NCBI GenBank assembly: GCA_963674695.2
Contig: CAXXGI010000002.1
Span: forward strand, 576,001-640,000
Reading direction: 5' to 3'
Source of the DNA: a bacterium
GTDB taxonomy: Bacteria > UBA10199 > 2-02-FULL-44-16 > JAAZCA01
Length of the DNA: 64,000 bases
Shown here: piece by piece, positions 7,996-43,387 of the stretch
Numbering within the stretch: position 1 is the stretch's first letter
Layout of the letters: each line of letters begins with the position of its first letter
The notes under the pieces: model-generated
Database searches by the model: none
Told to the model about the DNA's origin: nothing
The model's input: only the letters and a program-made list of their open reading frames with translations
Position numbers and translations under genes: made by a program

Positions 7996-8022
7996 GTATC
8001 GCACTTCGCACGATTCTGTTGT
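7996..8022 (-). promoter_or_regulatory. sigma28-like promoter ACAAC-N15-GCGATAC
   Basis: Reverse complement of gtatcgc-15nt-gttgt, 40 nt upstream of ATG 7956. Confidence 0.65.
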
Positions 8023-8066
8023 GCGAAAACGTGTTCATCGCCCGAAAAAACGTCTGTGAAGAAATG

Positions 8067-10457
8067 TCATTCCGACATCATGTGGGCGGCGTCGATGGGA
8101 AACGGTTCCTCGATATCGCTGAGCGCATTCGGTGCCGGCGGTTCGGCAGTGGGCTCCGCATAGTCCCGTTTGAGGATCTCCGCGTCGGCGGCGAAGTGGA
8201 TGTGGGCCTGATACGGCCCGCTGTGCAGGAGCACGGCCTCCTCGCCGGTGAAGAGGTCGAGTTCGGGGAAGAGGGTGATCGCCGCGCGCGACGTGCTCAC
8301 ATCGATGTGCGGGGTGAGATCCCGATCCGAGGGGTCCAGGTTCCAGGGGGCCAGGATCTGGAGCTTGCCGAAGCGTTGGCTTGTTCGAGTGAGCCCCGAG
8401 TGGATGAGCTCGACGAGGAGGCAGGCGCCCAGGATCTGCTTCTGGTAGAGCCGGTCGAGGAGGACGTCGACGAGATAGCGCTCCTCGTCCCGGCTCGTAT
8501 GAGGCTTGGCGCCGAAGTGCGTCGTGATCAGCGTGCGCGATTCCTTGACGACGTCCTTGAAGATCTCCTTGCTGGCCAACCAATCGTCGTGAATGGTGGA
8601 GCGCGCTGCGTTCGGCAGGCGCACTTCGCGGAAGTCGATGGCCGTGCCGAAGCGGTGGTCGCTGTCCTCGTCTTCGCGATAGGCGCTGCTGATGCGGACG
8701 TAGAGCGGGCTCTTCTCCGTTGCCCCCGCGCGTTTGGCCACGCGTGCGAGCACCGGTTCGATGGCGCGGGCCAGTTCCGGCGTGACGCGGTTGGAGGTCT
8801 TCTTCGCATACTGGCGCTTGCCGTCGGAATCCGTGCTCGTCACCGTGGTCATGTTTGCGGCGATGGTGAACGTCTTCCCTTCGATGGGCACGAGCGTATC
8901 GTAGTCGACCGGCGGAATATAGGTGCGGCTGACGTGTCGACTCAGGCGCCGTCCGATGAGCGTCCGTCGACGATGCGCACGCGCGCGCGGCCAGCTCTTT
9001 TTGATCCGCCGTGCGGCCTCGGCGCCGAAGAAGGAGATGAATCGATCGTATTCCGGGGCGAAGCCATCCTGCTTGAGGCAGAACTCGAAGCCGGTCTTGC
9101 GTTGCCCGGTGACGTGCAGCCCGTAGGCCAGGAGCAAAACGTCGTTGGGGTCCTCGCTCTTCACCTCCTTGGCGAGTTTGACGAGCGCATCCCGGTCTTC
9201 AAACCGGGCGGCCAGGAGGATGAGCTCCGATTGCTTGACCTCGTCGAGTTGTTTGGGATCCGCGCTCCAGGCCTCGAGGAGCAGGTGATAGTAGAGGCGG
9301 ATGCGCGAGGTGCTGTCGTTTTCAAACTTCCATGCGCCCCCGGTGTGGGTCGGATAGATGATCCCTTCGAGTTCCACCTGGCTTTTGAGTTTCGGCTCGA
9401 TCTCGTTCGTGCGCGTCTTTTCGAAGACGATCTCGAAGTCGCCCTCCAGAGCGAGATCGCGGCCGACGATGATGTCGAGCGCCGCCGGGAGCGCGACGAT
9501 CGATTCCTCGGTCTTCCCCCGCGGGCGTTCGCGGCGCCGCACGTTGGGATCGGTGGTGGCCACTTCGAGCGTGTCGGTCGTTCCCGGAACCCCGTTCATC
9601 TCCGGCAGGAGCAACGGGCGCATCTCGCCGCCGGCGATGCTCGCGCCCGTGCCGATGCCGGCGCGGTGCAGGTAGTGGAGCCAGACGGCGGAGAAGGCGT
9701 TCTCATCCCCGTGTCCGTGCAGCAGGACGTTGAGGGCGCCATGTCCGTTCATGTACGGCGCGTGGTGTCCGCAGGAGAAGATTCCCCCGCGGGTGAAGAG
9801 AAATCCGTAGACGAGTGCGGCGCGTTCGGCCGTCGGCGAGACCCCCCACGGATGGTCGAGCATCCGGCCGATGCCTTCGAACGATTTTGAGGGGCGGCTC
9901 TGCGGCAGCTTCTTCAGCCAGGCGTCGAAGATACGGTCGAGCGACTCGAGGCGGGCACCCGCGCGGCGGGCGAGCTTCAAGGGATCGGGGGCGGGCCCCT
10001 TCGGCTTCGATGCGCGTTCGCCGTCTTCGATCTCCGGCAGGCCGTCGATCACGATGTCGGTGGCCATCGGCGTGAGCTTTGCGTGTTCGGCCATGAAGAT
10101 CTGCATGGCCAGGACGAACGAGAGGATCTCTTTTTCCTGGATGGCCTTGTTGCGCAGGGCGCGGTAGTCGGCCGCGCTCTTCACGCCGCGCAGGATGTCG
10201 TAGTAGCGCGTGACCGTGCTCGGGCCGGGTTTCTTCTCCGGCGCCTTCGGCGCGGGCGTCGGTTTCGATGCCGCGGAAGGGTGCGGCGATGTGTGCGCGC
10301 CACGTTTCGGGACGTCCGAGATGAGCGATCTGACCGCGTCGATACCCTGCTTGATGAAGGAGGAACTTTTCTCCTGCGGCGCGGGATCTTCCTCGTGCGG
10401 CGTCGCGGCGACGGCCTGTCGAAGGAGGGCGGAGAGGGTCGTGCCGGTGATGGTCAT
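8067..10457 (-). CDS. Large orphan with C-terminal peptidase M15 (Zn D-Ala-D-Ala peptidase-like) motifs
   Basis: VRISSAYR...SDHRFGTAIDF (SxH-x6-D) and a distal HIH; ATGA overlap with the upstream gene. Confidence 0.7.
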   Translation of the reverse strand: MTITGTTLSALLRQAVAATPHEEDPAPQEKSSSFIKQGIDAVRSLISDVPKRGAHTSPHPSAASKPTPAPKAPEKKPGPSTVTRYYDILRGVKSAADYRALRNKAIQEKEILSFVLAMQIFMAEHAKLTPMATDIVIDGLPEIEDGERASKPKGPAPDPLKLARRAGARLESLDRIFDAWLKKLPQSRPSKSFEGIGRMLDHPWGVSPTAERAALVYGFLFTRGGIFSCGHHAPYMNGHGALNVLLHGHGDENAFSAVWLHYLHRAGIGTGASIAGGEMRPLLLPEMNGVPGTTDTLEVATTDPNVRRRERPRGKTEESIVALPAALDIIVGRDLALEGDFEIVFEKTRTNEIEPKLKSQVELEGIIYPTHTGGAWKFENDSTSRIRLYYHLLLEAWSADPKQLDEVKQSELILLAARFEDRDALVKLAKEVKSEDPNDVLLLAYGLHVTGQRKTGFEFCLKQDGFAPEYDRFISFFGAEAARRIKKSWPRARAHRRRTLIGRRLSRHVSRTYIPPVDYDTLVPIEGKTFTIAANMTTVTSTDSDGKRQYAKKTSNRVTPELARAIEPVLARVAKRAGATEKSPLYVRISSAYREDEDSDHRFGTAIDFREVRLPNAARSTIHDDWLASKEIFKDVVKESRTLITTHFGAKPHTSRDEERYLVDVLLDRLYQKQILGACLLVELIHSGLTRTSQRFGKLQILAPWNLDPSDRDLTPHIDVSTSRAAITLFPELDLFTGEEAVLLHSGPYQAHIHFAADAEILKRDYAEPTAEPPAPNALSDIEEPFPIDAAHMMSE

Positions 10458-41645: not shown

Positions 41646-43331
41646 TTAACTCCAGAAGACGTCTTCCTCGACCGTGACCTTTCCGGTCCGGGCGTTGACG
41701 TAATAGAGCGACAGCCCCATCTCGACCTCATAGTAGATATCGTGTCTGCCCGGCAGGATCACCATCTCGGAGTCCGGCGGCTTGGCGTGGATGCGCTGTG
41801 CGCGGCGGTTGGCCTCCATCGCGATGCGCAGGTTCATCTGCGCCTCTTTGTAGGCCTTTCCGTTTTGCGCTCCATCGCGCAGATAGATGCGTTCCTGCTG
41901 CTTCATCTCGCGCTGCGCTTTTTGGAGCTCGGCGCGTGCGCTCTGGCGAACCAGATCGTAGGCCTGCCGCAGGTCGATGCGGCGCAGCTCGTTGATCTCG
42001 TTTTCGCGAACCGGCCGAATGTCGTCGCGCGCGATTCCGTTAAACCGACCCTGGGCATCGCGGAAGGCGAAGAAGCCCGCGCCCATCATGCGAATCTGCG
42101 CGCCGTCGCGCGTGATGTAGTGCTGCTGATAGAAGTCGCGCCCTCCGCCGATGACGTCCACCTGATCGGTGCGCTGAAAGGTGATGTAGGGGTTCTTGCG
42201 TCGGAAGTCGGCCATGAAATCTCGGATGCTGCTGATCTTCTCCGGCTTCTTCGGCTCCACCTCGGAGGCATCCTTGATCATGCGCCGCTCGAGTGCCTCG
42301 GCGATGATCTCACGCCGCAGGTGGATGGCCAGGCCGCCGGCACCATAGCGCTCCTCACAGAGGTTTTCCATGCCATCGAGCATCGCTCTGACGAAATCGA
42401 CGGGCTGGGGCCGGTTGGTCGTGTAGAAGGCGCCGTGATTCATCATCATGCACATGACGATGTTCGCGGCATCCCGGCGTTTGTATTTGAAGACGCCGTT
42501 CGGATCGGCCAGGCGCTCCATCAGATCCCAGAAAAATCCCGCATAGGCGCGACCGCGATCGTGCACTTCGCTTCCGGCATAGCCGTCGCGATCCTTGGCA
42601 TCGAGGTGCAGGTTGTTGCGGCAGGTGCGCAGCCCCGCGTCCTTGCTCTCAGGTCTTCCGATTGCGGGTGAGAAATCCTCGCTCACCTCCGGATCGAGGT
42701 GGAAGAGCGCGGCCATGCCGTCGGCAAATCCTTCGTGAATAGCACCGCCTTCGCGGGCGTAGTAGCCGGTGAGCCCCGGGTGAAGCGCGTCGAGGATGGC
42801 GTGCCCCTGCTCATGGTTGACTACATCTCCGTCGCTGGCCAGGTGCCACTCGCCATAGCGTGAGTTCTTCGACGTGCCGAACGTCATCTCTTTTGTCTGC
42901 GGCGAATACCAGGCATTCATGTCGGTTACGGCGTTGGCATGTCCGACCATTGCATGTCCGATGATGCGATCCATATCGAAGCCGAGGCCTGCGTCTTTAT
43001 CCATATAGGTGAGCAGGCCCGTGAACGCATTGTAGAGCTGAACCTGATCGAAGCCGTCGGTGGTGACCTTCGATCCCTCGACGAAGGGATCATATCGAAA
43101 GATGCCGCCGAGTTTGGTCTGTCCGTCGATGCGCGCCCATTTTCCATTCAGGCTCTGAGCGTCTTTCTCCAGGTGGCGAAGGATGATGTCCTTGACCATG
43201 CCGTCGCTCGAGACGCGGTTTTCATGCGTCCAGACGTTGGCATGGGTTGCGGTTGGCGTCTTGTCCTGTGCGACGCGAAGGAAATGAGGCGGATAGGAAC
43301 GCGCAGGCGCGCGCATGTGTACGTTCGACAT
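41646..43331 (-). CDS. M36/M4 (fungalysin/thermolysin-like) Zn metallopeptidase with C-terminal FTP/PepSY-like region
   Basis: NAWYSP, DGDVVNHEQGH (HExxH), GAIHEGFAD, SEVHDRG; C-terminal FYQQHY and YYVNARTGKV; SD GGAGGAG. Confidence 0.85.
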   Translation of the reverse strand: MSNVHMRAPARSYPPHFLRVAQDKTPTATHANVWTHENRVSSDGMVKDIILRHLEKDAQSLNGKWARIDGQTKLGGIFRYDPFVEGSKVTTDGFDQVQLYNAFTGLLTYMDKDAGLGFDMDRIIGHAMVGHANAVTDMNAWYSPQTKEMTFGTSKNSRYGEWHLASDGDVVNHEQGHAILDALHPGLTGYYAREGGAIHEGFADGMAALFHLDPEVSEDFSPAIGRPESKDAGLRTCRNNLHLDAKDRDGYAGSEVHDRGRAYAGFFWDLMERLADPNGVFKYKRRDAANIVMCMMMNHGAFYTTNRPQPVDFVRAMLDGMENLCEERYGAGGLAIHLRREIIAEALERRMIKDASEVEPKKPEKISSIRDFMADFRRKNPYITFQRTDQVDVIGGGRDFYQQHYITRDGAQIRMMGAGFFAFRDAQGRFNGIARDDIRPVRENEINELRRIDLRQAYDLVRQSARAELQKAQREMKQQERIYLRDGAQNGKAYKEAQMNLRIAMEANRRAQRIHAKPPDSEMVILPGRHDIYYEVEMGLSLYYVNARTGKVTVEEDVFWS

Positions 43332-43360
43332 GGATGGCTCCTCCATCGGGGACGTTTGTG

Positions 43361-43387
43361 CTGTCGGCGGTCAAACGTCCAGGGTGT
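43361..43387 (-). promoter_or_regulatory. Weak sigma28-like promoter ACACC-N15-CCGACAG
   Basis: Correct geometry, 30 nt upstream of ATG 43331, but with several mismatches. Confidence 0.4.

Follow-up and report, generated by a model that had tools for sequence, protein, structure and literature searches.

Flagellar sigma-28 (FliA, SigD) recognizes class 3 promoters, such as that of fliC in Pseudomonas aeruginosa. In the open complex described for Pseudomonas sigma-28, the -35 element is TCTAAAG and the -10 element is GCCGATAA; R97 reads the extended -10 element, D66 and Y76 hold the flipped -11 base, and base-specific contacts with the -35 element are made by S224 and Q228 (PMC12784957). The sigma-28 family is also used outside motility. 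Streptomyces WhiG controls sporulation genes and is held by RsiG, an anti-sigma factor armed with cyclic di-GMP (PMC12871210), and Chlamydia trachomatis, which is non-flagellate and has a system for type III secretion (T3SS), possesses a sigma-28 regulon of two genes, with sigma-54 epistatic to sigma-28 (PMC10597470). In Pseudomonas syringae, HrpL, a sigma factor of the extracytoplasmic function type (ECF, group 4), is required for most of the hop effector genes and for the hrp/hrc genes, within an HrpR/S - sigma-54 - HrpL circuit (PMC3105312). Myxococcus xanthus carries a "needleless" T3SS* (MXAN_2434-2464), a non-flagellar system that consists of sorting platform, export gate, and ATPase complex along with LcrH/TPR-type chaperones and is found in deltaproteobacteria-like lineages (PMC10433427, PMC12075869); its effectors are stated as unknown (PMC10433427), and the word "sigma" is absent from both papers. 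Here, we analyzed a promoter-like motif in a 64,000-nucleotide (nt) stretch of the genome of a UBA10199 bacterium (the window; G000:C2:576001-640000). The genome comprises 3.03 Mb on three contigs (C1 to C3) with 58.5% G+C and is rated 100% complete.

Judged from sequence, the motif very probably represents the promoter class of a divergent FliA/WhiG-type sigma factor that is encoded in a T3SS cluster, with about 177 promoters, about 229 genes, a predicted regulatory cascade above them, and candidate secretion cargo among the products. A first-pass annotation of the window had proposed one regulon under an alternative sigma factor with a variant -35 box, possibly a predation or host-interaction program. 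The single regulon and its variant-box sigma factor are supported, and the program is corrected to a likely link with a non-flagellar T3SS encoded on another contig.

The motif was scored with a weight matrix of two blocks (an A/T-rich tract plus aCGCAACTTTT, and GCCGATAA), in which GCAAC and CGATA were allowed to be 15 to 18 nt apart and which was refined in four rounds over the whole genome. The resulting consensus, aCGCAACTTTT-N10-GCCGATAA, had 213 sites of at least 18 bits, compared with 4 in the genome read backwards and 2 to 4 in three local shuffles (6.07 Mb, both strands); at 14 bits or above, the real genome held 301 sites and these controls 21 to 29. Matches to GCAAC-Nx-CGATA numbered 101 at x = 16 and 10, 8, 24, 26, and 10 at x = 14, 15, 17, 18, and 19, respectively. 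Information is confined to the A/T-rich tract (-8 to -5 relative to GCAAC), aCGCAAC(T/a)TTT, and (G)(C)CGATA(A). The spacer columns hold 0.02 to 0.16 bits and the flanks are unconserved; since the spacer carries no information, the motif is not a dispersed repeat. Over 298 sites, the column counts of the -10 box (G177, C170, C287, G293, A297, T249, A260, and A206) spell GCCGATAA, and the gap between GCAAC and this box is 14 nt in 203 of the 298.

This extended -10 element is identical to that of Pseudomonas fliC, and in both, 14 nt (-30 to -15 in fliC) separate its GC from the -35 element; C(-35), AA(-32/-31), and a T-rich stretch after the -35 box are also common to both, whereas the -35 box is GCAAC here and TAAAG there (PMC12784957). 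The sigma-28 geometry recognized in the first-pass annotation thus holds, both in the -10 box and in the distance that separates the -35 pentamer from the extended -10 element. As for placement, 179 of the 212 sites of at least 18 bits (84%) fall between genes, in the orientation of the gene that follows and no more than 300 nt from its start; another 14 are intergenic and otherwise placed, and 19 lie within called genes. Altogether, 177 distinct genes are preceded by sites. With a unit defined as same-strand neighbors within 60 nt, the units contain about 229 genes and extend over 359 kb on all three contigs, which is 12% of the genome, so that the regulon of about 11 orphan genes originally envisaged was far too small. 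ATG codons opening frames of at least 100 codons cluster 6 to 10 nt downstream of the -10 box, with 24 cases and a mode of 7 nt, followed by one case at 12 to 14 nt and a broad second group at 15 to 30 nt. This spacing indirectly suggests a fixed transcript start about 7 nt after the -10 box, with some mRNAs being leaderless.

Seven sigma-70-family proteins are encoded in the genome, namely, RpoD, RpoH, three ECF-type factors, a 910-residue protein with a C-terminal sigma domain, and a 289-residue FliA/WhiG-like factor; RpoN is encoded as well. The 289-residue factor (G000:C3:8530-9399) has FliA_WhiG as its best NCBIfam match and would correspond to the alternative sigma factor proposed in the first-pass annotation. 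It is encoded inside a T3SS cluster, on a contig other than that of the window. Its nearest solved relatives are WhiG (94 bits; solved with RsiG, 6PFV/6PFJ), itself a sigma-28-family factor in non-flagellar use, and FliA (84 and 76 bits). Residues D101, F111, and R132 align with Pseudomonas D66, Y76, and R97, and Pseudomonas R101 aligns with A136. At the -35-reading positions, S224 is kept and Q228 is replaced by R (the +5 numbering offset of the PDB chain was inferred from six matching residues). In region 4.2, the helix LSKSW(T/V)SRLH replaces ESR(V/I)SQ(L/I/V)H, so that, relative to flagellar sigma-28, E is changed to K, R to W, V/I to T/V, and Q to R. KSW(T/V)SR was found in 29 of 29 orthologue loci, a number that includes some contigs fetched twice. 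An altered region 4.2 had been anticipated from the variant -35 box, and here KSWTSR stands in place of ESRVSQ. By contrast, ESRVSQ or ESRISQ is kept in the FliA of Escherichia coli and Pseudomonas, in WhiG, and in the flagellar FliA paralogues of the two flagellin-bearing relatives (G002 and G033), in which the second FliA has ESRISQ and adjoins flagellar flhA.

Kept -10-reading residues with a kept -10 box, together with a changed -35-reading helix and a changed -35 box, form the pattern expected if this sigma factor reads the motif. To recognize the extended -10 box GCCGATAA, the holoenzyme would rely on the same determinants as flagellar sigma-28; for the changed -35 box, aCGCAAC followed by TTTT, it would rely on the changed region 4.2 helix. 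The A/T-rich tract just upstream of the -35 box would be part of the promoter, and transcripts would start about 7 nt after the -10 box. From correlation and elimination, the 289-residue factor is most likely the reader of the motif. With flagellar sigma-28, it would make up a natural specificity-switch pair, in which the -10 reading is the same and the helix and the -35 box are both changed.

The correlation extends over the class. Among 41 same-class genomes searched (G000 included; the relatives are not mutually independent), the sigma factor was present in 40, the exception being a genome that is 78% complete (G011). SctV was likewise present in 40 of the 41, and flagellin in 2. The exact N16 pattern had 22 to 113 matches per genome in all 41, compared with 0 to 11 for the reversed control and 0 to 13 for an N14 spacing.

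The sigma gene is surrounded by genes for a TPR chaperone, SctJ, a FliG-like protein, SctL/FliH, SctN, a SctO/FliJ-like protein, and SctQ/FliN, and further by genes for a FliO-like protein, SctR, SctS, SctT, and more TPR chaperones. The SctV gene is on contig 1, and no flagellin gene was found in the genome. In many relatives, the sigma gene lies within 10 to 18 kb of sctV. The system is non-flagellar, as is the T3SS* of M. xanthus, with which it shares sorting-platform, export-gate, and ATPase components as well as TPR-type chaperones (PMC10433427, PMC12075869). About 40 nt before the sigma ATG, at C3:8476-8492 (locus L042), there is a sigma-54-type -24/-12 element, TGGCAT-N5-CTGCA; a strict pattern of this type was found at 14 of 30 orthologous sigma loci, duplicates included. 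Genes for a sigma-54 activator with an FHA domain (C3:25067-26455) and a Ser/Thr kinase with a PEGA domain (C3:26484-29246) flank the T3SS cluster. Because the sigma-54-type element, the activator, and the kinase adjoin, the predicted order of events runs from a signal to sigma-54, then to the secretion apparatus together with the sigma factor, and finally to the regulon, in which about 177 promoters, seven of them in the window, would drive about 229 genes scattered among core genes.

The gene that follows, P0001 (G000:C3:9399-9896), overlaps the sigma stop codon and encodes 165 residues, of which the C-terminal 45 are near-invariant across the class. We dropped P0001 as a FlgM-like anti-sigma candidate on account of the absence of a Pfam family, PDB sequence matches at chance level only, and the look of a rod protein. 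By eye, we take it to be a FliE/SctI-type rod protein, given its near-invariant C terminus and the fliE/F/G/H/I/J-like gene order.

The predicted logic agrees with that of two described systems, flagellar class 3 control and the P. syringae HrpL circuit, and the arrangement can be compared with further ones. As with HrpR/HrpS - sigma-54 - HrpL, a sigma-54-type promoter and an enhancer-binding protein gene lie by the T3SS cluster, an alternative sigma factor is encoded in it, and one box occurs on the cluster and on dispersed genes; however, HrpL is an ECF factor with a different box whereas the factor here belongs to group 3 (FliA/WhiG), and the Hop effectors are proven cargo whereas the targets here are only putative cargo (PMC3105312). 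C. trachomatis sigma-28 offers a likeness in being the factor of a non-flagellate bacterium with a T3SS, and differs in its two-gene regulon from the approximately 177 promoters and the variant -35 box seen here (PMC10597470). The family, the -10-reading residues, and the position of the gene in a T3SS-type cluster are shared with flagellar sigma-28; unlike in flagellar systems, no flagellin gene or FlgM was detected, and the promoters, about 177, precede mostly unknown genes rather than a few dozen motility genes. From WhiG, the closest solved relative, the factor differs in the helix noted above. In the literature searched, Chlamydia aside, we found no effector-like regulon of the sigma-28 type with a link to a non-flagellar T3SS, and none of the papers listed for UBA10199 concerned secretion.

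The content of the regulon was evaluated with 30 randomly chosen targets (fixed seed) and 30 controls, the latter being first in their units and without an upstream site of 12 bits or more. A Pfam family was found at an E value of at most 1e-5 for 7 of the 30 targets and 22 of the 30 controls (Fisher's exact test, p = 2.3e-4). The orphan enrichment claimed for the window was thus recovered genome-wide, with 23 targets and 8 controls lacking a family. The families of the seven targets were SMC, SET, RHS, HATPase_c, VWA, TPR, and GH77. Paralogues that are also targets were found for 42 of the 177; these families include giants of 3,200 to 3,760 residues, and several of the families start with MG. 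Among the 177 targets, 23 have glycine at position 2, compared with 97 of 2,199 other genes (p = 1.3e-5), and in the N termini of targets without a signal peptide, P, S, G, and T are more frequent and K, I, and L less so; these are weak hints of T3SS substrates. Moreover, in eight of eight relative loci harboring homologues with 24 to 35% identity to two window orphans, a site of 19.6 to 35.1 bits lies upstream on the right strand; because such diverged homologues still stand behind the motif, the promoter link outlasts protein sequence. We infer that many targets would be secretion cargo or would serve a contact, predation, or host-interaction program. A motif-driven protein of 273 residues (G000:C2:344197-345018) carries a SET (lysine methyltransferase) domain, which is typical of eukaryotes and also of some bacterial effectors.

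Several points weigh against the main interpretation. The best family model of the sigma factor, TIGR02479 (FliA_WhiG), scored 132.4 bits, below the cut-off of 189.6, and Pfam FlgM had no match in the genome at an E value of at most 0.1, FlgM being short and divergent so that its absence is unproven. A motif promoter heads the unit of the TPR chaperone and sctJ, before a 180-residue gene (C3:4406), and because of it a rule of late genes only fails. Auto-activation of the sigma gene is likewise uncertain. A motif promoter does precede a 141-residue gene just upstream of it (C3:7702), and such a site was found in 15 of 19 loci; however, that promoter is separated from the sigma gene in this genome by repeat elements and by a hairpin with a T run after it. 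Ordinary genes, for SMC and a 4-alpha-glucanotransferase, are among the targets, and the targets with Sec-type signal peptides, 33 of 177 (19%) in a crude test compared with 23% of other genes, cannot be T3SS cargo because of those signals. In addition, the site counts come from a matrix trained on the same genome, the 2,376 genes were called with our own codon-usage caller, which is crude and approximate, and "orphan" means that no Pfam family was found and nothing more.

Some of these observations fit a different role for the same sigma factor. It might read these promoters but control a developmental or late-stage program, in the manner of WhiG or Chlamydia sigma-28, for example, for a resting or dispersal cell. 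Such a program would accommodate the Sec-exported proteins and lipoproteins just counted as signal-peptide-like, and also the SMC, glycogen-type enzyme, and histidine-kinase-like proteins, the 910-residue sigma protein, and the ECF sigma unit found among the targets. However, the sigma gene is situated inside a secretion cluster and, in many relatives, at the distance from sctV given above, and most targets are lineage-specific, fast-diverging, paralogous, and in some cases giant, which fits interaction proteins better. We therefore regard a developmental role as rather unlikely, although the developmental and cargo readings are not mutually exclusive.

A broader version of the cargo reading is possible and, to us, doubtful. 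Across the uncultured class, an injectisome-like T3SS would have kept the late-gene logic of flagella (sigma-54 first, next the apparatus, next sigma-28, and last the secreted late products) with a sigma factor re-tuned to a new -35 box, and the promoter would mark a near-full repertoire of fast-evolving cargo and accessory genes (about 230 genes, 12%). The giants and the SET and HEAT/Arm proteins would then be included, proteins with MG..C/S starts could be lipidated in a eukaryotic host, and the sigma factor may be gated by secretion competence through a putative secreted anti-sigma factor. With regard to significance, the cargo of the early-branching, myxobacteria-type non-flagellar T3SS is described as unknown (PMC10433427), and a promoter specific to a sigma factor encoded in such a cluster would allow candidates to be listed from sequence only in any genome of the lineage. 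It also places about 12% of an otherwise unannotated genome in a common regulatory context. It also suggests how a flagellar control circuit may have carried over as secretion systems split from flagella.

The remaining alternatives concern which sigma factor reads the motif. An ECF (group 4) factor as the reader is very improbable and already close to refuted. The GCAAC -35 box, with the "AAC" signature, and the spacing of 16 to 17 nt resemble those of ECF promoters, and one ECF gene (G000:C1:31327-31905) belongs to a unit behind a site of 30.4 bits (C1:32826, minus strand), in which it follows a gene for a membrane-like protein of 188 residues; the motif regulon may thus feed a further sigma factor. 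Nevertheless, the motif is enriched in 41 of 41 genomes, and orthologues of this ECF gene with at least 39% identity occur in only 3 of 40 relatives, with no match at all in 21 of the 41 genomes. The sigma factors of five relatives, chosen as those in which the ECF search gave no first-look candidates, were also surveyed. Within the sigma-70 family, three of them (G017, G030, and G005) showed only RpoD, RpoH, and the FliA/WhiG-like factor, one (G023) only RpoD and the FliA/WhiG-like factor, and the fifth (G025) has one extra weak match. The four in which no ECF-type sigma factor was seen (G017, G030, G005, and G023) still have 25 to 87 exact motif matches. Moreover, the -10 box GCCGATAA is the sigma-28 box and not an ECF-type box.

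There is hardly any probability that the motif's reader is the 910-residue protein (C3:147960-150692), which would then be an activator of its own gene. Its gene does carry a site of 32.1 bits, with the ATG 7 nt after the -10 box, and its C-terminal 330 residues match RpoD, RpoS, and FliA models, following an N-terminal region of about 580 residues without assigned function. Yet homologues with a long frame are limited to about 5 of 40 relatives (G016, G018, G007, G012, and G001), the best match elsewhere being RpoD, and the protein therefore cannot explain a class-wide motif. Finally, the sites are numerous (about 8% of genes), as would be expected of a housekeeping promoter read by RpoD or of a promoter-like dispersed repeat, but the chance of either is close to nil given a canonical RpoD (window positions 48503-50293; 736.8 bits against a cut-off of 555), targets poor in known families, unconserved spacers and flanks, and TTGAC(A/T)-N16-18-TAnnnT sites in 42 of 1,451 upstream regions of other genes (13 in antisense) and in 0 of 175 of targets. 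The last counts show that there is a distinct class of housekeeping promoters.

Within the window, all eight stretches quoted in the first-pass annotation read exactly as given there. Seven of them score 14.6 to 31.6 bits with the refined matrix (five at 19.1 to 31.6, two at 14.6 and 15.6), whereas the eighth, at 43361-43387 on the minus strand and listed there as weak, scores -6.9 bits and is no site; the product of the gene that it precedes has a weak match to M36 peptidases. As had been described, the seven valid sites are correctly oriented, being intergenic and on the coding strand, and their distances from called starts (7, 63, 64, 27, 44, 31, and 39 nt) fall within the range of 7 to 65 nt. 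A strict form, RCAAC-N15-NCGATAA, has two matches in the window compared with 0.03 expected, and CCGATAA alone is not enriched there (5 found, 5.8 expected). The reported absence of the motif before housekeeping genes was confirmed for those tested in the window, with no site upstream of the genes for glutamate dehydrogenase, a Na+/H+ exchanger, LarC, a tRNA methyltransferase, DnaG, and RpoD. The window genes that lack a site are of ordinary kinds and include, besides those for the GdhA-type dehydrogenase, the exchanger, LarC, the methyltransferase, and DnaG, one for an AAA ATPase. Among the 10 window proteins scanned, 8 had no family at an E value of at most 0.001, the other two being a HEAT/Arm-repeat protein and the M36-like peptidase.

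The strongest of the seven sites is a GCAAC-N16-CGATAA promoter at 37634-37660 on the minus strand (31.6 bits). Only 7 nt separate the end of its -10 box from the ATG at 37626, and the mRNA is therefore probably leaderless. The orphan gene behind it (36052-37626, minus strand; 524 residues, no Pfam family) has weak homologues (24 to 29% identity) in 4 of 40 relatives, and all five such loci have the motif upstream; a protein atlas search with its product returned only unnamed clusters, with low recognition. Two plus-strand promoters precede paralogous genes. The first (21719-21745; 27.7 bits) lies 63 nt before the start at 21809 of an orphan gene of 590 residues without a Pfam family (21809-23581). 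This gene belongs to a family of four paralogues, three of which stand behind the motif; its product had marginal matches only, in 3 of 40 relatives, and the protein atlas search with it found nothing. The second promoter (23878-23904; 26.6 bits) lies 64 nt before the start at 23969 of its paralogue, also an orphan gene (23969-25603; 544 residues), the product of which starts with MGGPNSC. An open reading frame at 25610-27196 begins 6 nt after this gene and may share its transcript.

The other four sites are on the minus strand. One with an ACAGC variant of the -35 box (13364-13390; 19.4 bits) lies 27 nt before the start at 13336 of two overlapping orphan genes without Pfam families (8067-13336), 10454-13336 (960 residues) and 8067-10457 (796 residues), which probably form one unit. 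A GAAAC variant (41407-41433; 19.1 bits) lies 44 nt before the start at 41362 of an orphan gene of 335 residues, again without a Pfam family (40355-41362). Two promoters are weaker. At 14730-14757, the spacer is one base longer and the -10 box is GCGATGA (15.6 bits); the start at 14698, 31 nt downstream, opens a pair of orphan genes without Pfam families (13481-14698), 14099-14698 (199 residues) and 13481-14083 (200 residues). At 7996-8022, ACAAC is combined with GCGATAC (14.6 bits), 39 nt before the start at 7956 of a gene for a HEAT/Armadillo-repeat protein of 759 residues (5677-7956). A strong copy of the motif that was absent from the first-pass list (47153-47179, plus strand; 28.0 bits) falls within the coding sequence of dnaG, 1.3 kb upstream of rpoD. 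This copy might serve rpoD as an internal promoter or might be an antisense-free accident; in E. coli, dnaG holds an internal heat-shock promoter for rpoD.

In the two flagellin-bearing relatives, canonical sigma-28 promoters were sought upstream of flagellin, and no CGATA box was present there. By eye, loose boxes resembling CAAGTTTT-N10/11-(T)CCGTT were noticed in these regions (in G033, L107 and L109). As these relatives also have the separate canonical FliA next to flhA, two sigma-28 paralogues with different boxes may coexist in one cell.

Other repeated sequences were observed in the intergenic DNA. Tandem heptamers, (CGAGTCA / CGAGTTA)n, stand directly before start codons in many spacers (for example, L042:4980-5225 and upstream of C1:122581). 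The words ACGAGTCAC and GAGTTAC, enriched in upstream regions and considered as a second promoter box, were rejected as such, since they correspond to these heptamer repeats. Palindromic elements resembling repetitive extragenic palindromes (TGTCATTCCCGCG...CGCGGGAATGACA, with a GGGGATGACAAAG variant) are also abundant between genes, as seen at L042:8236-8320.

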